A stretch of DNA of 27,589 nucleotides from IMG/VR virus record IMGVR_UViG_2563366982_000007; one strand, 5' to 3'. Both the position numbers and the translations under genes were made by a program. The notes under the pieces were generated by a model that was given only the letters and a program-made list of their open reading frames with translations, was not told the DNA's origin and did no database searches. This DNA is from a virus. Taxonomy: Duplodnaviria > Heunggongvirae > Uroviricota > Caudoviricetes. Below are positions 3,936-19,281 of this stretch, one piece after another; the first letter of the stretch is position 1, and each line of letters starts with the position of its first letter.

Positions 3936-4139
3936 ATGGCAATTAAGCATTTTCCTGTCGTTCGTTTCACCTCCAGAGGACGTGAATACGAAGTTGACGA
4001 ACGCCTGATTACCACAATCGACAAACACCGTTCAGAAAAGGATGCACATCACATCTATCTCACTGACGGCACTTACTTCTGCGCCACCAACGTGGTGCAG
4101 GTAAATCTTATCAGACAGGTACAGGAGTCACGCAGATGA
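3936..4139 (+). CDS. Hypothetical early protein
   Basis: 67 aa from the Met preceded by AAGGAGG (the track ORF begins at 3885). Confidence 0.4.
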   Translation: MAIKHFPVVRFTSRGREYEVDERLITTIDKHRSEKDAHHIYLTDGTYFCATNVVQVNLIRQVQESRR

Positions 4140-4381
4140 TCATTCTGGACTACATCGCTGCCAATCCGGGTTGTAGCGGTGGAGAAATCGCCGCAGCACT
4201 GAATACACCAACCACAACCATTAATGCGGAGCTACGCCGTCTCTGGCGCAGCGGTTCAGTCATAAGAAAAGAGCGCAAAACAGGCGGTCGCTTTTCTTAT
4301 CAGGTAAACCCGATGCCGTTTGGGTGTAGCAACCCACTAACCCAGATGTTCAACCAGCTACTGAGGGAAATCAGAGCATGA
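4136..4381 (+). CDS. Hypothetical small protein, possible winged-helix DNA-binding
   Basis: 81-aa ORF whose start overlaps the previous stop. Helix-turn-like segment GGEIAAALNTPTTTINAELRRL. Confidence 0.4.
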   Translation: MIILDYIAANPGCSGGEIAAALNTPTTTINAELRRLWRSGSVIRKERKTGGRFSYQVNPMPFGCSNPLTQMFNQLLREIRA

Positions 4382-4894: not shown

Positions 4895-7660
4895 ATGACG
4901 GCAGAGTACATCAGGGACTGGCAACAACCGCGCCACGCAGTGGGGCGTGAAGGAACGGGGATCCCCGCTCCTGAATCCGCGCTTTCCTCCTGGCTGGATG
5001 CCTACCGGGTAGAGAACGAGCGCCGCCAGGAAATGGCTGATGCGGCGTTCTCCGCAACGCCGCTGGGCAACCTGATTAATAAAAGCCTGGACGCACAGGA
5101 AAAACAGGACAAAACCATCACACTGGCAGGAGATGCCAGAAAACAGGCACGCGGCGCGGTGGATGAAGCCATGGCCTCGCTGCGCCTGCTGCCGTCCTAT
5201 CTGCGCGATCCGCTTATTCGCCACCTCTCCTTCCTGCGCAAAAAACAGGAAGCCGATCGTCAGAAAGGCAAAAAGAGCTGGCAGGCTGAACGCTACGCGC
5301 GCGGAAACCTGCGCAAAATATTCGAACGTCTGGAGCGCACCGATCACCGCTGGCTGACACAGGGTTATCGCTCCCTTGCCGGACGCGAACGCCTGGACGA
5401 TTTGCTTTACCTGCCGCAGCTCAACAAACACCAGATACAGACACTGGCCACCATGACGGCGGCGATGTTCAGCAGCACCTTCGAAAAACTCTGCGATGGC
5501 TTTGGCGCGACCGATGGCGAACTGACCATGGATGTAACGCTGAAGGCGTATCAGATGCTGGCCCGCATGGCGTTACACCTGCACGCCATGCCTCCACATT
5601 ATGACGCACTGACAACAGACAAAGACCGGAGGAACGAACCGGACACGGAGCTGCTGCCGGGCGCAATCCTTCGCCTGACCTGTGCAGAATGGTGGAAACG
5701 CAAACTGTGGCTGTTACGTTGCGAGTGGAGAGAAGAACAACTCCGCGCCGCCTGTCTGGTTTCCAGAAAAACATCGCCCTATCTGAGCCAGGACGCGTTA
5801 AGCGAGTTTCGCGCACAGCGCGAGAAAACACGCGATTTCCTGAAAAGTTTCATGCTGGAAAATGAAGACGGGTTCACGATTGATCTCGAGACAGTGTATT
5901 ACGCGGGAGTAAGTAACCCGGTTCACCGTAAGGCAGAAATGATGGCCACCATGAAGGGGCTGGAACTTCTGGCCGAAGCCCGTGGTGACAAAGCGGTGTT
6001 TCTGACTGTCACCTGCCCGTCAAAATACCACGCAACAACGGAGAACGGTCATCCGAACCCCAAATGGAACGGGGCCACCATGCGCGACTCCAGCGATTAC
6101 CTGGTTAACACGTTTTTTGCGGCGGTCCGCAAAAAACTGAACCGCGACGGCCTGCGCTGGTATGGCATCCGCACGGTGGAGCCTCACCATGACGGCACCG
6201 TGCACTGGCATATGATGGTCTTTGCTCATCCGGAAGAAATCGACAGCATCGTGGCCATCACCCGCGATATTGCCATTCAGGAAGATCGTCACGAACTGGG
6301 CGATGATATTACTCCGCGCTTTAAGGCGGAGTATGTCGACGGCTCAAAAGGCACACCAACCAGCTATATCGCGACCTACATCGGAAAAAACCTGGACAGC
6401 CGCGCCGTAGATGGCATCGACCCGAAAACGGGCAAGCCACGCGTTGACCACGAAACCGAAAAATCAATGGCCGAGAGCGTGGAGCGCGCCATTGGCTGGG
6501 CGCGTCTTCATCGGGTCCGCCAGTTCCAGTTCTTTGGCATCCCCTCCCGTCAGGTATGGCGTGAACTCCGCCGCCTTGCCAGCCAGATGGCACGCAACCC
6601 GGAAGGCCCGCAACGGCTGAAGGATGATGCAATGGATGCGGTACTCGCTGCCGCTGATGCCGGGTGTTTTGCCTCCTACATTGAAAAACAGGGCGGCGTA
6701 CTTGTTCCACGTAAAGACTACCTGATTCGCACCGCCTACGACCTCGCAGATGAGCTGAACGATTACGGCGAGCAGAGTGTACAGATTTACGGGATCTGGT
6801 CGCCGCTCATCGGGGAGTCTTCCCGCGTGTGCACGCACCCGGATAACTGGAAGCTGGTAAGACGTAAACCGGAAGCGGAAGACAGCGCCCGCGAAAATGG
6901 TTTTGACCTTCAGGGCGGCCCTGCCGCCCCTTGGACTCGTGGCAATAACTGTCCCCGTGTACAGGAAACGGACAACAACGGGACAGAACAGCCGGAAGAA
7001 CGGCCAGCACCGTGGCCGCAGCTTCCTGACGGCGTTGATGTGGATGAATGGATGCGCTCACTGAAACGGCAAGAACGCCGGGCGCTGATGCGTTCGCTGC
7101 GTGACAAACAGGCAAAAAACAGCAGTGATGAAATGCAGAGCTGGACACAGAGCCGCAAACAGCAGCGGCCTTTGCCTGATAACCACGAATTACTCGCTAA
7201 AGAATGGCGGGAATCTGCTGAATCTCTCGGCCTGCATATCGGTGAACAGCAGATGCAGCACCTGTTACGGGGCGGCAGCCTGTACGTTGACGGCAGCATC
7301 ATTGCACCGCAGGGATTTGAAATTGTACGCAAACCGGATACCCGCCCGGACAGCCGAATCACGCAGCTCTGGCAGCGCCTGAGCCGTAATCACGGCGTAA
7401 GCAGCACGGAGATCCGCCATAACCCGGTCGCCAGCTATCTGGAACAGCTGGGGGCATCAGACCCCGAAGCCGCCGCACGCATGGTATCCACACTTCAGCA
7501 GGACCAGAACACCATGAAAACCCCCGTTACCGTGCTTTCTGACATGCTGCGCGTCATCCGTGACGCAGAGCACGCACAGAGAATCAATGAAACCACTGAA
7601 CGCGCACGTCACAAGGCGGGTCTGTTGCAGGACAAAGGCAATAGCGAGAAGAAAAAATAA
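4895..7660 (+). CDS. A: Rolling-circle replication initiator (P2 gpA-like HUH endonuclease) with long C-terminal extension
   Basis: HUH-type motif TVHWHMMVFAH and paired active-site tyrosines in SYIATYIGKN. Position after the early operon matches P2 gene A. At 921 aa it is longer than P2 A as I recall it (about 760 aa). Confidence 0.85.
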   Translation: MTAEYIRDWQQPRHAVGREGTGIPAPESALSSWLDAYRVENERRQEMADAAFSATPLGNLINKSLDAQEKQDKTITLAGDARKQARGAVDEAMASLRLLPSYLRDPLIRHLSFLRKKQEADRQKGKKSWQAERYARGNLRKIFERLERTDHRWLTQGYRSLAGRERLDDLLYLPQLNKHQIQTLATMTAAMFSSTFEKLCDGFGATDGELTMDVTLKAYQMLARMALHLHAMPPHYDALTTDKDRRNEPDTELLPGAILRLTCAEWWKRKLWLLRCEWREEQLRAACLVSRKTSPYLSQDALSEFRAQREKTRDFLKSFMLENEDGFTIDLETVYYAGVSNPVHRKAEMMATMKGLELLAEARGDKAVFLTVTCPSKYHATTENGHPNPKWNGATMRDSSDYLVNTFFAAVRKKLNRDGLRWYGIRTVEPHHDGTVHWHMMVFAHPEEIDSIVAITRDIAIQEDRHELGDDITPRFKAEYVDGSKGTPTSYIATYIGKNLDSRAVDGIDPKTGKPRVDHETEKSMAESVERAIGWARLHRVRQFQFFGIPSRQVWRELRRLASQMARNPEGPQRLKDDAMDAVLAAADAGCFASYIEKQGGVLVPRKDYLIRTAYDLADELNDYGEQSVQIYGIWSPLIGESSRVCTHPDNWKLVRRKPEAEDSARENGFDLQGGPAAPWTRGNNCPRVQETDNNGTEQPEERPAPWPQLPDGVDVDEWMRSLKRQERRALMRSLRDKQAKNSSDEMQSWTQSRKQQRPLPDNHELLAKEWRESAESLGLHIGEQQMQHLLRGGSLYVDGSIIAPQGFEIVRKPDTRPDSRITQLWQRLSRNHGVSSTEIRHNPVASYLEQLGASDPEAAARMVSTLQQDQNTMKTPVTVLSDMLRVIRDAEHAQRINETTERARHKAGLLQDKGNSEKKK

Positions 7661-7840: not shown

Positions 7841-8962
7841 ATGGGCGACTTAGGTGGTATTCAGTCAGATTTAGCCCAACTAGTTAGACTGGTAATAACT
7901 GAACAGTATGATGACGTTCGGTTATATGTCGCTCGCTTGGTGCGTAAATATCGGGAAACTATGCCTGCTCTATCCGAGCAGCTTGATCTTTATCTACGAA
8001 ATAAACCGCAAAAGCCTGCACAAAGCCTGCGTAAGGTTACCGCACCAAAACAAGCGCTGCCTCAAACCATGCCTGTGGACGAGGAGTCAAGGCTTACCTT
8101 GCTTAAAGCACCAAATGAAAAGATTGTGAGCAAACCTCTACTGTCCAGTCAGATAGAAGACTCACTGGATCAAATTATTCTTGAGCGGAAGCACATCGAT
8201 CGCCTCAAGACTCTCGGCTTACAACCAACACGCTCTGCCATTTTTGTTGGCCCTCCGGGTGTAGGTAAAACACTTACGGCAAGCTGGTTAGCTCAGAAAT
8301 TAGGGGTTCCTTTTTACGTTCTTGATTTAACGGCAGTAATGAGCAGCTATCTGGGCAAAAGCGGAAATAACCTTCGGGCAGCTCTAGATTTTGCGAAGAA
8401 AGGGCCGTGCGTTCTTCTGTTAGATGAAATTGATTCAATCGCCAAAAAGAGAAGTGATGATTCTGATGTTGGAGAATTAAAAAGACTTGTTACCGTGATA
8501 CTCCAGGAGGTTGACGAATGGCCGTCTTCTAGTTTGCTACTTGCTGCAACTAACTTCGCTGAGTTGATTGATCCAGCACTATGGAGACGTTTTGATTTAG
8601 TGCTCAATTTTGAGAAGCCAGATAGCGAAAGTATTAAAGAAGCAATTAAACGCTTTTCGGGTCCCGACTACGCGATTTTTGCACGTTGGATAGATCTACT
8701 GGCTATTATGTTCAAAAATGAATCTTTTAGTAATATTGAGCGTTCTATCAACAAATTCCGACGTTCGGTCGCTTTAGGTATTTCCTCAGATGAAGAGTTG
8801 ATTGGGTCGTTCATTAAAGATGGTTTATCAGAATTAGACAGGAATGAACGTAAAGAAATTGCAGTTACTCTAAAAAGAAATTCTAAATTATCCCAGCATG
8901 CCATATCAGACTTAACCGGAGTCAGTAGGGATACAATTAGAAAATACAGTCAAAAAATGTAA
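7841..8962 (+). CDS. Classic AAA+ ATPase with C-terminal helix-turn-helix; candidate defense ATPase
   Basis: Walker A GPPGVGKT (about aa 137-144), Walker B LLLDEID (about aa 192-198), sensor-1-like AATN, arginine-finger-like WRRFD. C-terminal LSQHAISDLTGVSRDTIRKYS resembles an HTH. AT-rich codon usage unlike the flanking phage genes. Confidence 0.85.
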   Translation: MGDLGGIQSDLAQLVRLVITEQYDDVRLYVARLVRKYRETMPALSEQLDLYLRNKPQKPAQSLRKVTAPKQALPQTMPVDEESRLTLLKAPNEKIVSKPLLSSQIEDSLDQIILERKHIDRLKTLGLQPTRSAIFVGPPGVGKTLTASWLAQKLGVPFYVLDLTAVMSSYLGKSGNNLRAALDFAKKGPCVLLLDEIDSIAKKRSDDSDVGELKRLVTVILQEVDEWPSSSLLLAATNFAELIDPALWRRFDLVLNFEKPDSESIKEAIKRFSGPDYAIFARWIDLLAIMFKNESFSNIERSINKFRRSVALGISSDEELIGSFIKDGLSELDRNERKEIAVTLKRNSKLSQHAISDLTGVSRDTIRKYSQKM

Positions 8963-8985
8963 TACAGCATAGATAAGGAGTATGT

Positions 8986-11211
8986 ATGGCGAAAACTAAT
9001 TTTCTGATTGGACGCGGCGAATTATTAACCAGCGATATTCCTGGTCCTAAAAGAGTGCCCGGAAAAGCTGAGGTTTATTCTCTTTACGAATCGAAACAAC
9101 GTTTATTGCCGCAAATTGCATCTACTATAGAAAATTTTGATGATTTACCCAGTCAGGCATGTCCTTATGATTATGCTGTGGCTAAGTTGACGTTGAATCC
9201 AAGCTATATTGCACGCTCTTTTTTTCCTGCAAAAATGCTTAAGTCTACCGGGTTAACGTCTATTGGCAGCAGGACGGTAAAAATTACGCCTCAAAGCTGG
9301 AAGCGAAAAGTTACTGTGTCAGAAGTAACTACGACACAAATGTTTGTTGCTGGTAAAAGAGAATCCTTCAAAGAGTTACCTCATTGGGTGTCAGAACTCA
9401 AAGAGTTTTCTGACGAAGCGATTGATTTTGCACGCATAGAACGGTTCGATGCCTATTTACCCGAAGAGCGTATTATTACCATTGGTGAGCAGGATTCTTC
9501 GTATTTTGAGGTTGGTGTTCATTTACTGCCAGATAATGAACAAGACTTGGTTCAGCAACAATTTGTTCAGTTTGCATCAAATTTGAACATCAAAGTACAT
9601 ACTTCATTAGCTTTTACCGCTGGTACATTATGGTTCGTGCCAATCCAGGCCGATAGAATTACTATTAGTAAGCTTGCGAAATTTACATTTGTACGAGTAA
9701 TAAGACCGGTTCCAAGATTGCGTGGGATTAGACCAATACAAAGGAACTACGGTCCTTTAGCTCAGTGTAAATTACCTGCTGAGGGCCCCGTATCTTCAGA
9801 AATAAAAGTTGCGATTCTTGATGGTGGTTTACCATCAGAGCACGCTATATCGCCATGGTTAAAATCCTATAGAGTTTTGGACGATCATGCAGAGGATGAT
9901 CCAGACGGTTTAGAGCATGGTTTAGCTGTGTCTTCAGCCTTTTTATTTGGACCAATAAGTAATAAATCGGAAGCGAAAAGACCATACTCTTATATTGATA
10001 ACTTAAGAGTTTTGGACAACAAGACCTGCCAAGAAGATCCGCTGGAACTATATCGAACTTTGGGCTTTATTGAAGAGGTATTGTTGTCTCGCCAGTATCA
10101 GTTTATCAATCTAAGTTTAGGTCCAGACCTACCAATTGAAGATACGGAAGTTCATGCATGGACTTCCGTTATTGATGATTTGTTAAGTGATGGTGAAACA
10201 TTAATGACTGTTGCTGTTGGCAACAATGGAGAAATGGATCGCAAGTCTGGTAATGCAAGAATTCAAGTACCAGCCGATTGCGTTAATGCTCTTGCTGTTG
10301 GTGCTTGTGATACAGTTAATGATACGGAATGGAAACGAGCACCATATAGCGCCATTGGGCCAGGCAGAAGTCCTGGCGTGATGAAACCGGATTTAGTTGC
10401 GTTTGGTGGTGACACAGACGAGTACTTTCATGTTTTAGGTAAAGGTAAGAAGCCTGTAATCATACCCCAGCTAGGAACAAGCTTTGCCTCTCCTTACGCC
10501 TTACGAGCAGCTGTTGGTGTTCGGGCAATTTTAGGGAACGATTTGAGCCTACTAGCAATCAAAGCTTTGTTAATTCATGCGTCAAAACAGCTTGATCATC
10601 CTTGTACAGAAGTTGGCTGGGGAAAACTGCCTGAAGACTTGAACGACATTATAGTCAGCCCTGATGGTGTTGCCCGTATCGTCTACCAAGGTGAATTGAA
10701 ACCAGGAAAATACTTACGCGCTTCTCTTCCAATACCTGAAGGTGGCTTGAAAGGTAGAATAAACTTAGCGGCAACTTTCTGTTATGCAACAACCACTGAT
10801 CCACAAGACCCAGCTTCCTATACAAAAGCTGGTTTGGAAGTGACATTCCGGCCAAATGATTCAAAAATCAAAGACGGAAAACAAAATGCTGAAACCAAGG
10901 GATTCTTTGAACTGGCCAAATATTCAACTGAAAGTGAGCGACGTTCTGACATGGGCAAATGGGAGACCGTCTTACATAATTCGAAGAACATGCTAGGTTC
11001 AACTCTAAAAAATCCTGTATTTGACATTCATTATAACGCTCGTGAGGCCGGTGCAAGCATAGCCAGCCATAAGGCAGAAAAAATCAAGTATGCTCTTATA
11101 ATTACCATTAAGGCATCAAAGCACCAAGACCTGTATAACGAAATTTTACGTACTTATAATCAGGTGCTCGTGCCAATTCAACCGCAAACATCAATTCCTA
11201 TTCGTTCGTAA
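8986..11211 (+). CDS. S8 family (subtilisin-like) serine peptidase, cytoplasmic, with N- and C-terminal accessory domains; candidate defense effector or sensor
   Basis: Catalytic triad in canonical S8 order and context: Asp in VAILDGG (about aa 279), His in EHGLAVS (about aa 311), oxyanion Asn in VGNNG (about aa 413), Ser in GTSFASPY (about aa 499). No N-terminal signal peptide. About 270 aa precede and about 230 aa follow the protease core. Starts 23 bp after the ATPase stop with RBS AAGGAG. Confidence 0.85.
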   Translation: MAKTNFLIGRGELLTSDIPGPKRVPGKAEVYSLYESKQRLLPQIASTIENFDDLPSQACPYDYAVAKLTLNPSYIARSFFPAKMLKSTGLTSIGSRTVKITPQSWKRKVTVSEVTTTQMFVAGKRESFKELPHWVSELKEFSDEAIDFARIERFDAYLPEERIITIGEQDSSYFEVGVHLLPDNEQDLVQQQFVQFASNLNIKVHTSLAFTAGTLWFVPIQADRITISKLAKFTFVRVIRPVPRLRGIRPIQRNYGPLAQCKLPAEGPVSSEIKVAILDGGLPSEHAISPWLKSYRVLDDHAEDDPDGLEHGLAVSSAFLFGPISNKSEAKRPYSYIDNLRVLDNKTCQEDPLELYRTLGFIEEVLLSRQYQFINLSLGPDLPIEDTEVHAWTSVIDDLLSDGETLMTVAVGNNGEMDRKSGNARIQVPADCVNALAVGACDTVNDTEWKRAPYSAIGPGRSPGVMKPDLVAFGGDTDEYFHVLGKGKKPVIIPQLGTSFASPYALRAAVGVRAILGNDLSLLAIKALLIHASKQLDHPCTEVGWGKLPEDLNDIIVSPDGVARIVYQGELKPGKYLRASLPIPEGGLKGRINLAATFCYATTTDPQDPASYTKAGLEVTFRPNDSKIKDGKQNAETKGFFELAKYSTESERRSDMGKWETVLHNSKNMLGSTLKNPVFDIHYNAREAGASIASHKAEKIKYALIITIKASKHQDLYNEILRTYNQVLVPIQPQTSIPIRS

Positions 11212-11224
11212 TCCTTCAAGACAT

Positions 11225-11256
11225 AATGCCCCTCAATTTGAGGGGCATTTCTTTGC
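11225..11256 (+). terminator. Rho-independent terminator after the peptidase gene
   Basis: Perfect 10-bp stem AATGCCCCTC / GAGGGGCATT with loop AATTT, followed by a T-rich run; begins 14 nt after the stop codon. Confidence 0.6.
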
Positions 11257-11608
11257 ACAAAAGTGCACAAATTTGCACAATTTTTTTGAACGACTTTTTG
11301 CCCTTCCGGCCCGCATGGCGGCTGGATCCGTCAAGGATCCGTGCGTGCACAAAAAACGCGTTTTTCCTGCGCGCAGGTGACGGGGGAACAGCCCGCGTTT
11401 CAGGGGGTAAACAGCATTCCCTGAACGATGTCGCAGAGACACAACAGAATGGCCATATTTCTCACGCTGAGCATGAAAAAGGCGTGAGGGCTTTTGATTT
11501 GATGGGGTGAAAGGTAAGGCCGTCAAAATCGCACTGAGGCAGCGAGAACATACAGTCAACGCGGTGGAATTGCGTAAGTGAAGTGGTCAACAAAAACTGG
11601 CCACCGAG

Positions 11609-12756
<1,148 letters not shown>

Positions 12757-13031
12757 TATGGCACCTGTGTTGTTCTGAGGTGAGCATATCACCTCTGTTC
12801 AGGTGGCCAAATTCAGTAAACCACTTCAAAGAGTCTGACCGTCGATGGTGGCGATAAACTGGAAGGCGTCGTGAAATTATCTGATTGATACAGGAGCTGG
12901 AGAGCCGGGGCATAAATTTTTTATGCCCCGGCGAAGCAGCAGACAAGCGAAGCGCGTCAGCGATACGGCACCTTGCCGACCATACTTCATAAGTGCAAAA
13001 TACGAGCAAAGAAATCAATGGAGGCTGTCTT

Positions 13032-13556
13032 ATGGTCATTAATTACAAGCAGTTAAGAGAAAAACGGGAGCAGGTAAAGGAGAGCTTTCGCCGCAATGAA
13101 GATCTGACCCCGCTTGTACGCCTTGCCCAGGGCATTGTTGATGCTTATGAAATCTCGCTGGAGCTGCCATCACAGACCTGGACAGATAGCGACGGTAATC
13201 GCCAGCATTACGTTTCATGCGGACTGGAAGCAGCCGAAGGATTTCGCAGAATGCCTTTATCCCAGATCCCTGCCGCTACCCCCAAAGCACGGGGCAGCAA
13301 TGATGAGCGAAAACTGACTTTTAGTATTGAAACGGTGGTTGACGACACACCTGGCGAAGTCGCGTTCGTGCACACGCCTGTTTCGATCGCAATGTATAAC
13401 GATGAAATACAGGTTCGCGTTAATAATAATATCGTGCCACTTAAAGAAGGTAATTCACCCTACACCACCGTTTGTGAAGCCATTCAATATTACGTTCTCT
13501 CTGAAATTGATAATCTCAAGCCTGACGGCACCCAGAAAATGGTTCAACTCTGGTAA
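13032..13556 (+). CDS. Hypothetical protein (about 174 aa), orphan gene between the IS and portal gene Q, convergent with Q
   Basis: ORF with RBS GGAGG before the ATG at 13032 (the track ORF starts at 12993). No recognisable motifs. Ends at a shared bidirectional terminator. Confidence 0.5.
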   Translation: MVINYKQLREKREQVKESFRRNEDLTPLVRLAQGIVDAYEISLELPSQTWTDSDGNRQHYVSCGLEAAEGFRRMPLSQIPAATPKARGSNDERKLTFSIETVVDDTPGEVAFVHTPVSIAMYNDEIQVRVNNNIVPLKEGNSPYTTVCEAIQYYVLSEIDNLKPDGTQKMVQLW

Positions 13557-13588
13557 AAAGGACAGCCCCATCACGGGGCTGTTTTTTC
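13555..13588. terminator. Bidirectional intrinsic terminator between the orphan gene and Q
   Basis: Stem ACAGCCCC / GGGGCTGT with loop ATCAC, flanked by an A-run on one side and a T6 run on the other. Overlaps the Q stop codon. Confidence 0.6.
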
Positions 13589-14617
13589 ATCAAGAAGAGC
13601 ATAAGAGTTAAAACGGATCACCTCTTCGCCAAGCCAGTCATTGATGTGCTTCATAGCCTCCATGACGGGCATCAGCTCGTTAATTGCGTAAACCCGCGCT
13701 GCCTTCTCCACATCGCCAAACGCACTTTTTTCGCCCGGCATCGCCCCCATCAGTTGCGGCGGAACGCGGTGCGCAGCCAGCACATCATCACGGGATGCCG
13801 CCTTAACATTCATGAATTCATCTTTTGCGGTGATCTGCTGGAACGGCAAAATTTGCACCCCCTCTTTGCCCCCGTTGGGCGCATGAATGAGCACGTTTTT
13901 AAACGCACCACCACCACGTGCCCCCTGTAGCGTTTCTTTCAGGGAGTCCATGCTTTCGCGGTTTACCTGCGCTGCACCGATGTAGATAATGCACCCGGCG
14001 TGGGATCCGTTGTCGTAGTACAGTTTTCTGAACATGTCCGCCGAATGAGAAAGGCTGGCCGAGAGTAATGCGCCAAGATATTCCGGCATGCCGTAGATTT
14101 CCTGGTTAATATCCGGATTCATCAGGTGGCACACTTTGCCAGGACGAAACTGAAACGCGTCCTTGCCATCCTGCACATACCACCATGATTCAAGATCGCT
14201 TCCGCGTCGCATGTATTTCGCCAGGGCGTGCCGTAATTTAAGCGGTTCGCCGAGCATATTGCTTCGAAGCTCAAGGAATGCGTTACCGAACACAAACCAG
14301 TCCAGCGCCAGCGCCGAGAAATCCTGCCGGGAAAGCAGCGGGTGCGGGATGTAGCAACCGAGTAATACATTGCGCTTAAAGTAAAGCGCAGACTGATGCC
14401 AGGACGTTTGCCGGGCTGCTCTTGCCAGACCGTACCAGTCCACCGGGGTTTCATACCACCGCCCGTTATCAGCACAGTACATATTGTCCAGCAGGTCATG
14501 CCCGGTCAGGCGATAAGGACCATCAAATGTGAATGCACTGAGCGATGATTCTTTCCTGAGCGCATCAGCGAGATCAATGCGTGAACTCATGCGCACTTTT
14601 TTATTTTTTCTGCTCAT
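13571..14617 (-). CDS. Q: Portal protein (P2 gpQ-like)
   Basis: 348 aa (P2 Q is about 344 aa). Lies immediately downstream of, and overlapping by 1 nt, the large terminase gene on the minus strand, as in P2. Confidence 0.85.
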   Translation of the reverse strand: MSRKNKKVRMSSRIDLADALRKESSLSAFTFDGPYRLTGHDLLDNMYCADNGRWYETPVDWYGLARAARQTSWHQSALYFKRNVLLGCYIPHPLLSRQDFSALALDWFVFGNAFLELRSNMLGEPLKLRHALAKYMRRGSDLESWWYVQDGKDAFQFRPGKVCHLMNPDINQEIYGMPEYLGALLSASLSHSADMFRKLYYDNGSHAGCIIYIGAAQVNRESMDSLKETLQGARGGGAFKNVLIHAPNGGKEGVQILPFQQITAKDEFMNVKAASRDDVLAAHRVPPQLMGAMPGEKSAFGDVEKAARVYAINELMPVMEAMKHINDWLGEEVIRFNSYALLDEKTAP

Positions 14618-16368
14618 CAGAACTCCATAACCGTGAAACGCTCGTTTTCTCCTTCGCCGCCAATTGGTTCGTTAATGACAGCAAGCATGGTTGCCCACGC
14701 AAGGTCGCCGTGGCTGATCCCCCTCGCGCGGTCCGTTTCGTAAGTGATAAAGCCGCCCGGTGTTTTCACCTTACGCACGGCGTTAAAGGCTGCGACCAGC
14801 TCGCGTTCGGCGCGATCGTATTCCCACCGCCCGGCACGCATTATTTGCAGCATTTTCAGTACCAGCGACCGTTTTGATGACAGCGTGAAGGTGTACGGAA
14901 TAGCAGCAGGGAAAAACCGTTTCACTATCTGATAAACAGCCTCCCCGTTCCCGCCTGTCACATCAATGCCGATGTGTTCCACGTTGTAGCGACACGTGAA
15001 CTCTTCAATGACTCTGGCCTGTTCTTCAAACTCCAGCCCCTGAACGCGTCGCGTCTCCACCGTTCGAAAACGGCCGCCAGGAACAGCCGGAGGAACCACC
15101 ACGGACACAGCGCCGCTGTCGCCGTTTCCACTGCTGCCGTTTGCGTCATACCCAATCCATACCGGACGATTCCCCATCGGGCGGGGAGCAAAAGGTTTCC
15201 AGTCTTTCCAGTCGTCGTATCCGTCAACACCGCAGCCAATCAGGATATTCAGGTTAAATGCCGATTCCCCTTCGCGGACAAACTCACACATATAGAGATT
15301 GAGGAACTCGTCTTCGGTGTTTTCATCACGAATTTCGTCGATATCGGTGTGTTTCCAGCCGTGATTAACCACATCTTCCAGCGTGACAATTTGCCGCCAC
15401 GTCCGGTCAGGGCAGATAAGCCCGTTATGCAGCGTTTTCCAGTCCACAGAAAAACGCTGGCGTTTATGCGAGGCCTTTTTCTCGTTCCAGCGGTCGCCGT
15501 TCCAGTAGGCGTATGCCTCGTGCGTTTCGGTGGATGGCGTGGAGAAGTAGGTGCGCCGCAATCCGCTGAGGGTTGCCATAGCGCCAGCCACCTTGCGCAG
15601 TTCAGCAAAGCGACTGACCCAGAAAAATTCATCAAAATAAAAATTGCCCGTATAGGACTGCGCCGACGCAGCAGAAGTGCCGAGAAAATGCAGCTCTGCG
15701 CCGTTGGAGAGGATGATTTTATCGCCCCCTTTCAGCTCCACATCAACTTCAGCCGCAGCCTTCTGAATAATGCTTTTAAACTGGAACGCCTGACGACGCG
15801 ACGCAGACAAAAAAATCTGGTTACGCTGGTAAGGTTGCGCCACATCGTCACGCAGCGCCATCAGCAGTGCTTCCTGTGCAAAATACCAGGTCGCGCCAAT
15901 CTGTCGGGATTTCAGGATCATCCTGTTACGTATCCCGGCTTCCCTGCAAAGGGTCAGGGAGTCAAACCAGCCCCGCTGATGCCACTCCAGCCTGCTGATG
16001 ATTTTTTCCCGCAGTGCGGCAATCTGTTCCGGCGTGAAATGATTTTTGAGTTTTTTCGCCCGGCCTTTCTTTCCTGTGGCCGTCGCATCCGGCTGGCCAT
16101 CATGCATTTTTTTAAGCTGCCGGGTCAGCAGGTCTATTTCCTTAAAGTCACCGCCTGTTTTATTCTGTTTTTCAGTAAGCTGGATGAGGCGCGCATCGAT
16201 GGACTGCGTGACACGCTGCACGGGTGGCGTTTCATCCCACTGGTCGCGTTTTTTCCACGCATAAATCGTGTTCGGGTTTATTCCCATCAGACGTGATATT
16301 TCTGCGGGCGGATAACCCTGCCAGTAAAGTTGCCGCGCACGCTGGCGCACAAAAGCGTCCTGAATCAT
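14617..16368 (-). CDS. P: Terminase large (ATPase) subunit (P2 gpP-like)
   Basis: 583 aa, with an ATPase region and a nuclease region. Position and orientation, divergent from O-N-M-L, are exactly as in P2. Confidence 0.88.
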   Translation of the reverse strand: MIQDAFVRQRARQLYWQGYPPAEISRLMGINPNTIYAWKKRDQWDETPPVQRVTQSIDARLIQLTEKQNKTGGDFKEIDLLTRQLKKMHDGQPDATATGKKGRAKKLKNHFTPEQIAALREKIISRLEWHQRGWFDSLTLCREAGIRNRMILKSRQIGATWYFAQEALLMALRDDVAQPYQRNQIFLSASRRQAFQFKSIIQKAAAEVDVELKGGDKIILSNGAELHFLGTSAASAQSYTGNFYFDEFFWVSRFAELRKVAGAMATLSGLRRTYFSTPSTETHEAYAYWNGDRWNEKKASHKRQRFSVDWKTLHNGLICPDRTWRQIVTLEDVVNHGWKHTDIDEIRDENTEDEFLNLYMCEFVREGESAFNLNILIGCGVDGYDDWKDWKPFAPRPMGNRPVWIGYDANGSSGNGDSGAVSVVVPPAVPGGRFRTVETRRVQGLEFEEQARVIEEFTCRYNVEHIGIDVTGGNGEAVYQIVKRFFPAAIPYTFTLSSKRSLVLKMLQIMRAGRWEYDRAERELVAAFNAVRKVKTPGGFITYETDRARGISHGDLAWATMLAVINEPIGGEGENERFTVMEF

Positions 16369-18480: not shown

Positions 18481-19281
18481 ATGATTACTCCTGCACAACA
18501 ACACTGGCAGAACGTGATGGCACAGCGCGCAGGCCGGGCGAATGAAGGTGTGGACCACGCCGCGCGTACCGCGCATGAAGAGGTGCTGTATCGTCTGCGT
18601 CTGGCACAGGCCAGGCTAAAGGGCGTACAGGCCAGAAGCGCGAAAGCCGCCATCAAAAAAGAGTTGTTGCCGGATTTTTCCGGCTGGATTGAGGGAACGC
18701 TGGAAGCTGACGGCGGGCAGCAGGATGAAGTGATTGCCACGCTGATGGTGTGGGCGATTGACTGCGGCGATCTTCCGCTGGCGCTGCGTATTGGTGCATA
18801 TGTGGTCCGTCACAACCTCATCATGCCGGATAACTTTGGCCGTACTGCTGCCACGGTACTGACCGAAGAAATCTGCAACCCGGTACTGACGCAGGCCGGG
18901 ACGGATGCCGACGCGGATTTATCCGCCTTTATCGAACCACTGGACACACTTTGGGAAATTGTCGCCAACCAGGACATGCCGGACGAAGTGCGCGCCAAAT
19001 TATGCAAGGCGTGTGCCTTTGCCCGTCGTGGCCTGACCGATGCAGACAACATGGCCTCATCACTGAAGCTGCTGCGCGAAGCGATGCACCTGAACCCGAA
19101 CGCAGGTGTGAAACGCGAGATTGCAACCCTTTCCCGCGCCCTGAAAAAAGCCGATTCCGCAGCCGCACCAGAAGACGCCAGCGCACAGCAGACGCAGGAC
19201 GAAAGCAGCAAAAGTAAAAAGACAACGCAGAAGCCTGCAACACGAAAAATCACCGCGTCGCAGAAGGCGAAGCGCGGTTAA
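18481..19281 (+). CDS. M: Terminase small / endonuclease subunit (P2 gpM-like)
   Basis: 266 aa, by position after N and by size. Has a basic low-complexity C-terminal tail. Confidence 0.7.
   Translation: MITPAQQHWQNVMAQRAGRANEGVDHAARTAHEEVLYRLRLAQARLKGVQARSAKAAIKKELLPDFSGWIEGTLEADGGQQDEVIATLMVWAIDCGDLPLALRIGAYVVRHNLIMPDNFGRTAATVLTEEICNPVLTQAGTDADADLSAFIEPLDTLWEIVANQDMPDEVRAKLCKACAFARRGLTDADNMASSLKLLREAMHLNPNAGVKREIATLSRALKKADSAAAPEDASAQQTQDESSKSKKTTQKPATRKITASQKAKRG

Follow-up and report, generated by a model that had tools for sequence, protein, structure and literature searches.

Four TGCACAA repeats as the probable split terminase recognition site of a P88-type P2-like prophage

The DNA analysed here is IMG/VR virus record IMGVR_UViG_2563366982_000007 (Caudoviricetes), a stretch of 27,589 nucleotides referred to below as the window, which is a P88-type P2-like prophage (Peduoviridae). 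It carries four copies of the heptamer TGCACAA on the + strand between its replication and portal genes, at 11254-11260, 11264-11270, 11274-11280 and 11346-11352 (termed R1 to R4), and from the sequence we consider it likely that they form the split terminase recognition site of a P88-type cohesive-end site (cos). We read them in this way because of their position, a layout that is kept throughout the P2 family, the joint change of distal and proximal copies, and their retention in satellites. The initial annotation of this DNA had proposed three origins for the repeats, namely terminase or cos recognition elements, a replication or partition site, or regulator binding sites; the first has stood, the second is not supported and the third finds little support.

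The repeats and the predicted cohesive end

The site extends from the terminator of a peptidase gene to an insertion sequence (IS), and its parts are as follows (negative positions count from cos).

11225..11249, + strand: terminator-like hairpin with a perfect 12-bp stem (AATGCCCCTCAA/TTGAGGGGCATT), which ends the IetS (S8 peptidase) gene and is the last piece of variable cargo
11254..11280, + strand: distal repeats R1 (11254), R2 (11264) and R3 (11274), three times TGCACAA at 10-bp spacing
11281..11287, + strand: run of seven T directly 3′ of R3, read in the sequence
11288..11345, no strand: spacer between R3 and R4, fixed in length (R3 to R4 = 72 bp) and variable in sequence
11311-11321: weak GC-rich dyad CCGC-atg-GCGG inside the spacer, centre about -60
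11324-11331 and 11335-11342: GGATCCGT direct repeats inside the spacer
11346..11352, + strand: proximal repeat R4 (TGCACAA), 30 bp 5′ of the predicted cos cut and followed by an A run
11352-11365, no strand: palindrome AAAAACGCGTTTTT
11366-11377, no strand: perfect 12-bp palindrome CCTGCGCGCAGG, which spans the predicted top-strand nick
11376..11394, + strand: predicted 19-nt cohesive end GGTGACGGGGGAACAGCCC (cos nicking region), placed by homology only
11395..11578, no strand: conserved right flank of cos as far as the IS junction; homology to P88-like phages reaches 11578

The phased triple and its fourth copy stand at the positions first reported, downstream of the peptidase terminator as had been said, and the GGATCCGT repeats and the AAAAACGCGTTTTT palindrome noticed beside them are real as well. 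The heptamer as such is unremarkable, with 10 occurrences in the whole window against 7.0 ± 2.7 expected, whereas the phased triple TGCACAANNNTGCACAANNNTGCACAA, with at most two mismatches, has a single occurrence in the window and was absent from all 100 shuffles that preserved dinucleotides. Cooperative binding on one face of the DNA, suggested earlier from the helical phasing, is plausible.

The cohesive ends of P2, 186 and P4 are annotated, and in all three TGCAT occurs three times, with a fourth copy 72 bp after the third and cos 29 bp later (locus coordinates).

P2 (L006): TGCAT at 2453, 2465 and 2475; fourth copy at 2547; cos 19-mer starts at 2576
P4: TGCAT at 702, 715 and 725; fourth copy at 797; cos 19-mer starts at 826
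186: TGCAT at 702, 715 and 725; fourth copy at 797; cos 19-mer starts at 826

The window has spacings of 10, 10 and 72 bp, and its predicted 19-mer starts 30 bp after R4. It thus shares with these three sites the order of cargo hotspot, cos and portal, a related G-rich 19-mer, the layout of three copies plus one, the 72-bp gap and the distance of about 29-30 bp from R4 to the cut, and differs from them in the repeat word (TGCACAA, not TGCAT) and in the step from R1 to R2 (10 bp, not 12-13 bp). By hand count GGTGACGGGGGAACAGCCC matches the G-rich 19-mer of P2, GGCGAGGCGGGGAAAGCAC, at 13 of 19 positions and differs at six. Intermediate ends, GGCGAGGCGGGGGAGCAAG and GGTGACGGGGGGAGAGCCC, occupy the equivalent position in related prophages, and those of the GGCGAGGCGGGGGAGCAAG type also use TGCACAA and bridge the end of the window to that of P2; GGTGACGGGGGAACAGCCC itself is identical in phiT5282H and in satellites. 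We therefore predict from sequence that GGTGACGGGGGAACAGCCC at 11376-11394 is the cohesive end, and the window site is probably a P2-family cos, a lineage variant with its own word and its own cohesive-end sequence. The linear record of phage P88_4B11 starts at the equivalent of window position 11299, inside the spacer, and was rejected as a cos end since its first base was set by reference genomes (PMC6969025); we found no virion-end data for P88-type phages.

Between P2 and P4, identity falls to 18% (chance level) in the 67-nt spacer and amounts to 80% in R2-R3, 93% from R4 to the cut and 100% in the 19-mer. The stretch that they share begins exactly at R4 and stays near-identical to about 7 bp past the 19-mer. 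As far as the papers that cite it describe it, this stretch corresponds to the “55-bp core” of P2-type cos credited to Ziermann and Calendar 1990 (cited in PMC5694545, PMC3931495), and the distal triple falls outside that core. The literature that we found gives only the 55-bp core, so the layout of the distal triple may be undescribed, although the 1990 cos paper itself may already note it.

Layout and repeat words across the P2 family

Conservation was followed in P88-like prophages chosen through the gpM gene and not through the repeats, which gave 59 distinct sequences. The triple is kept in 55 of them (its first copy may read TGCACGA) and the fourth copy stands 72 bp after the third in 58, which is strong conservation. 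Left of R1 there is no conservation in this set, and close P88-like relatives are conserved at 90% or more everywhere to the right of R1. Among prophages with different cargo, in phage records and E. coli genomes alike, homology starts at 11247-11255, 0-7 bp before R1, and in 186-type prophages it sets in 5-10 bp before their own R1. The more distant phiT5282H is detectably homologous only over 11247-11397, a block that opens at R1 and closes with the predicted cohesive end; the right flank is not conserved there. The triple is kept in P88-like phages, phiT5282H, other Enterobacterales and satellite-like elements. A search with the triple itself gave 123 loci, and in 105 of these R4 follows R3 at a distance of 72 bp. 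In phiT5282H and the satellite L128 the spacer is only 52-54% identical to that of the window, while the part from R4 through the last base of the 19-mer is retained in phiT5282H, satellites and P88-like phages. The gpM-based search of viral contigs that supplied the 59 P88-like sequences returned only relatives of 95-99% identity and was uninformative for co-variation.

These data also bear on the proposal that the copies belong to a replication origin, as iterons, or to a partition site, or that they arose by chance in an AT-rich sequence, which we find hardly credible. Short direct repeats at helical spacing do resemble iterons, and P88, which has ParM/ParR and other genes in place of the IetAS genes of the window, carries its ParM and ParR genes about 1 kb upstream of the repeats. 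The repeats are nevertheless kept where par genes are missing (the window, phiT5282H, P2, 186 and P4), and chance is excluded by the shuffles together with conservation across genera. The P2-type origin lies inside gene A, which counts against origin iterons as well.

The motifs between the copies are less widely kept than the copies. The GGATCCGT pair and the AAAAACGCGTTTTT palindrome occur only among close P88-like relatives and are missing from phiT5282H and L128, which keep R1-R4 and cos all the same. Kept more widely are the T run after R3 (invariant across the P88-like set and seen in other TGCACAA lineages too), the A run after R4, the dyad near -60, and GCGCGCAGG, which lies just before and across the predicted cut and is kept in phiT5282H, satellite-like elements and other lineages.

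Several further features of the interval were observed in passing. A perfect GC-rich dyad at about -59 to -63 from cos recurs in many lineages with its symmetry and position kept and its sequence different, for instance GCGCCAG-tg-CTGGCGC, CCCGCCA-gtaa-TGGCGGG or ACCGCGCC-attccc-GGCGCGGT; carriers include L150, L158, L160, L169, L176, L209, P4 and 186, and P2 has none. Such a dyad might bind a dimeric protein or extrude as a cruciform in the circular packaging substrate. Pairs of GATC (Dam) sites were seen by eye in the spacer, as GGATCC twice in the window (11324-11342) and as GATC-N5-6-GGATC directly after R3 in many TGCAT lineages (e.g., L160, L169 and L150). In nearly all family members the left side of the cut ends in GCGCA, GGGCA or GTGCG, like an inverted half of the repeat core. 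Small hypothetical proteins have been annotated across cos in P88 (gp21 and gp22, at 4099-4242 and 4262-4390 of L001), and the window has open reading frames (ORFs) there at 11226-11510 (+) and 11233-11559 (-); these are probably not genes, since the interval diverges by indels and phiT5282H loses all similarity right of cos.

For a family-wide test, 80 prophage loci from different bacterial species were fetched by the portal protein alone, a cos-like 19-mer was located in 62, and 59 non-redundant loci were kept. We compared a proximal window (-38 to -21) with a distal one (-138 to -89) and with an equal-sized control in the spacer. In 39 of the 59 loci the distal window contains two or more copies of a proximal 5-mer, and in 26 it contains three or more; the spacer control holds two or more in none of 59. 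Repeat copies cluster at about -123, -112, -101 and -29, and where the loci could be scored, R3 to R4 measures 72 bp in 32 of 42 and R2 to R3 10 bp in 32. Across the family the sequence of the spacer diverges while the distance from R3 to R4 mostly stays at 72 bp. Distal and proximal words change together (GCAT with GCAT in 23 loci, GCAC with GCAC in 12, mixed in two; Fisher p = 5e-8, a value that ignores shared ancestry). The words found are listed here with their carriers.

TGCAT(G/T): many Enterobacterales
TGCACAA: P88-like, Citrobacter, Serratia, Pantoea and Klebsiella prophages
TCACAA/TGCACAA: Xenorhabdus
CCGTCA: Acidovorax and Variovorax
GCGTCA/GCGTTA: Collimonas
TGCATA: Burkholderia AP3
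GCAGG/TGCAGAA: Pseudomonas and Stenotrophomonas phages
TGCGTA: a Mannheimia phage

A single host species, E. coli, thus houses two words, TGCAT in P2/186 and TGCACAA in the P88 type, which argues for a phage-encoded reader over a host protein. The same fact bears on a mainly architectural role, in which the phased copies would give curved DNA or host nucleoid-protein sites that bend cos, with no base-specific phage reader. Their 10-bp phasing with A/T runs (CACAAAA, CACAAAT, CACAATTTTTTT) is indeed a curved-DNA pattern, and lambda uses integration host factor (IHF) and static bends at its cos (PMC4856287). However, neither a host factor nor curvature would require that the words differ within E. 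coli or that the proximal copy always changes with the distal ones, and a visual check only of 11281-11345 revealed no good IHF consensus WATCAANNNNTTR. We consider this role improbable.

Retention in satellites is the remaining line of evidence. The portal gene adjoins in 108 of the 123 loci found through the triple. In two of the loci, L128 (about 4030-4060, - strand) and L113, the available DNA contains neither a portal nor a terminase homologue; L128 encodes integrases, a Toprim primase and a P2-family major-capsid-like gene, and L113 also has a capsid-like gene. Both keep R1-R3, R4 at 72 bp after R3 and the 19-mer of the window, with a spacer identity of 54% for L128. Another element, L117, has scaffold-, capsid- and gpM-like genes without portal or large terminase, and keeps the triple with R4 71 bp after R3. 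The three may act as satellites to P88-type helpers while supplying a capsid protein themselves; elements that need the packaging machinery of a helper would retain exactly these pieces, the repeats and cos. A search with Psu found no P4-type satellites with a TGCACAA-type cos.

The layout is the same whatever the identity or orientation of the neighbouring genes, P4 and satellites included, and this tells against a transcriptional function of the repeats, whether as operators or as part of a promoter or terminator, that would control expression where the defence-cargo hotspot ends or read-through into cos. In favour of such a function, the first TGCAT of P2 overlaps with sequence immediately 5′ of the mapped starts of the old-tin mRNA, and R2-R3 with the T run score as a weak terminator-like hairpin. 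Yet a promoter scan of 11100-11700 gave no promoter-like site, the cargo of the window and of P88 is co-directional and already ended by the strong hairpin, and the hairpin with T run is missing from TGCAT lineages, so that we regard this function as very improbable. For the same lack of conservation in TGCAT lineages, R2-R3 were rejected as an intrinsic terminator; activator sites of a late promoter were rejected too, no TGT-N12-ACA dyad being visible by eye. An Rfam scan found no family.

The protein that reads the repeats

Our candidate for the reader is the N-terminal helix-turn-helix (HTH) of the large terminase, which gpM would assist as a partner. We put this forward tentatively, at slightly less than an even chance, from sequence comparison and structure models.

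16234..16368, - strand: N-terminal HTH of the large terminase (about amino acids 1-45), with the recognition helix at amino acids 32-42 (NTIYAWKKRDQ); candidate reader

This N-terminus matches Pfam Terminase_5 and HTH_23, and the record of 186 also annotates a putative HTH at the N-terminus of its large terminase. An AlphaFold2 model from the single sequence places helices at 3-16, 21-28 and 32-42 with a predicted local distance difference test (pLDDT) score of 86-91. The initial annotation had named gpM and an ATPase protein with an HTH for footprinting, and these candidates are well chosen, the large terminase carrying such a domain. In 56 prophages and nine phages, the start of helix 3 tracks the repeat word in the following way.

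N-T-[IVL]-Y with GCACAA: P88-like proteins and otherwise divergent Xenorhabdus and Morganella proteins
[APSV]-T-[VI]-[HQ]-S-W with GCAT: many Enterobacterales
K-T-[LV]-H with GCAG: Pseudomonas and Stenotrophomonas phages
S-T-[IV]-A with GCGT: Collimonas and Mannheimia, which are distant hosts
[ST]-T-V-[HQ]-G-W with CCGTCA: Acidovorax, Variovorax and Mitsuaria

The AlphaFold2 model of gpM, built on an alignment of 37 sequences (pLDDT 82.9, predicted template modelling score 0.71), is all-alpha, with a ten-helix repeat resembling tetratricopeptide repeats (TPR) and a disordered basic tail, and contains no HTH. Sequence searches of PDB with both terminase subunits gave nothing useful. The gpM of P2 (L291, 5157-5900) and the R protein of 186 (L292, 5898-6647) end in an AT-hook-like basic motif, KRGRP; the gpM of the window ends in QKAKRG, as if cut short at this motif, and database relatives of 285-313 amino acids exist.

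A rival account accepts the repeats as terminase sites and assigns their reading to gpM, as gpNu1 reads lambda cosB, leaving the large-terminase HTH another role. It is usually the small terminase that reads a cos or pac site (PMC4856287, PMC11331095), and that of HK97 reads DNA without a classical HTH (PMC11331095), so the HTH-less model does not exclude gpM. Moreover, gpM differs between the classes of word (40% identity between the window and P2), its basic KRGRP tail is present in P2 and 186, and the satellite-like L117 carries a gpM-like gene of its own. On the other side, the TPR-like model shows no recognisable DNA-reading module, and the gpM-like protein of L117 is very divergent (28% identity) and yet TGCACAA is kept there. 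It is the recognition helix of the large terminase that tracks the word across at least five classes, S-T-x-A occurring with GCGT in two distant host groups. Reading by gpM is therefore unlikely in our view, although far from negligible.

Extended to the whole P2 family, the HTH reading would have cos recognised by the large terminase on a split site of three copies plus one, 72 bp apart, and not by a classical small terminase, with gpM as a TPR-like adaptor. A helix-3 residue code (N32/Y35 for GCAC; A or P with H or Q for GCAT; K with H for GCAG; S with A for GCGT) would then set packaging-specificity groups, which decide the satellites that each helper mobilises. This generalisation is held a little more loosely still.

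How the site might work can be outlined as follows. R1-R3 and R4 all lie on one side of the nicking region, the side opposite to the portal and terminase genes, and would make up the final ~120 bp of the mature chromosome. Several copies of the same DNA-binding module, encoded by the phage, may occupy R1-R3 and R4. With the gap between them fixed at 72 bp, about seven helical turns, one terminase complex could grip the two clusters together while the intervening spacer bends or wraps. Its nuclease, in the large subunit, would thereby come to lie on the adjacent GC-rich nicking site. Binding of the repeats would mark the DNA for packaging and set which helper phage packages which satellite. In this outline gpM would be the TPR-like partner, and its basic tail may touch the A/T runs beside R3 and R4.

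That said, a number of points weigh against what we propose. For the site itself, the literature that we found holds no binding, cleavage or packaging experiment on these repeats, and the cut position of the P88 type follows from homology only. Since the core, as cited, starts at R4, R1-R3 may only enhance packaging and not be essential. In 20 of the 59 loci a proximal 5-mer has no more than one exact copy in the distal window, and the sequence of R1 is variable (TGCACGA, TGCATAA). As to the reader, a fold search with the single-sequence HTH model gave no significant match, its top weak matches being HTH domains. The co-variation of the HTH with the word rests on perhaps four to six independent changes, and gpM is co-inherited with the large terminase. 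Finally, AP3 combines A-T-L-Y with TGCATA, so that position 35 alone does not set the word and the code is not one residue to one base.

Genomic setting and other packaging sites

The repeats occupy the position of cos in the P2 family: gpA and the accessory genes are on one side, and on the other is the portal gene, whose 3′ end faces the repeats and beside which stands the gene of the large terminase. The interval between gpA and portal is the cos-proximal defence hotspot of P2-like phages (PMC9122126). In the window it is arranged as below.

4895-7660: gpA replication protein
7841-8962: IetA (AAA ATPase), defence cargo
8986-11211: IetS (S8 peptidase), defence cargo
11254-11394: repeats and predicted cos
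11579..12828, - strand: IS911-like insertion sequence of 1250 bp (IS911 matches; rve and HTH_Tnp_1 domains)
12993-13556, + strand: extra gene, an ORF of 187 amino acids matching phrog_5091 (unknown function; E = 2e-67)
13571-14617, - strand: portal
14617-16368, - strand: large terminase (gpP homologue)
18481-19281, + strand: gpM (Pfam PF05944, “phage small terminase subunit”)

PADLOC identified the genes at 7841-11211 as an anti-phage system (IetA E = 1e-77, IetS E = 1e-51), and AAA-ATPase and S8-peptidase genes were seen at the same place in phiT5282H, an Enterobacter phage that is otherwise only remotely related in the region of cos. The IS911-like element, flanked by a 3-bp AAG target duplication (11576-11578 and 12829-12831), sits between cos and the portal gene, 185 bp right of the 19-mer, and adds 1.25 kb to the prophage, outside the cos site. 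The phrog_5091 gene is missing between cos and portal in P88, where a gap of only ~120 bp separates the conserved block from the portal stop, and its position looks like a second, left-side cargo slot.

E. coli M1/5 matches the stretch 11212-11578 at 100% identity, and relatives of this stretch are present in 1107 of 5426 complete E. coli genomes, so this type of cos occurs in about a fifth of them; P2-like prophages and their satellites are among the commonest enterobacterial mobile elements, and these prophages carry a defence-system hotspot directly beside the repeats. If true, a lineage-specific word would explain where swappable cargo must stop, how helpers and satellites are paired (P4 with TGCAT helpers, elements with capsid genes with TGCACAA helpers) and how cosmid delivery systems based on P2/P4 could be made orthogonal. 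The old question of how the P2 terminase finds cos becomes a concrete one, namely whether the HTH of the large subunit reads it. As a component of the prophage the element is ordinary, if essential; the layout of three copies plus one, the changing word and the link to the HTH are what make this long-standing question testable.

Among other packaging sites, lambda cosB (the gpNu1-binding R3, R2 and R1, with the IHF site I1) likewise has three short repeats beside a nick, which anchor the terminase and position its nuclease, their spacing to the nick being important (PMC4856287). In lambda they flank cosN on the side of the terminase genes, and their reader is the winged HTH of the small subunit, with help from IHF. 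Those of the window lie on the side away from the terminase genes and are split three plus one across a 72-bp gap; the only HTH found belongs to the large subunit, no small subunit with a winged HTH having been found. By analogy the site would resemble lambda cosB in its working, as repeated anchors beside a nick, without being a member of the lambda cosB family.

In SPP1 and P1 pac, two clusters of elements are held in one nucleoprotein complex. As in the window, these clusters (pacL/pacR with TerS in SPP1) stand several helical turns apart (see also PMC4856287). They flank the cleavage site, whereas the copies of the window are all on one side of the predicted cut. The hexamers of P1 pac contain GATC and depend on Dam methylation, unlike TGCACAA, which is free of GATC. 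HK97 is, like the window, a case of a cos phage with a short specific site near cos that starts and ends packaging (PMC11331095). There, one minimal site is read as the DNA threads the ring of the small terminase (PMC11331095), whereas the window has four phased copies and nothing in it indicates a ring-forming small terminase.

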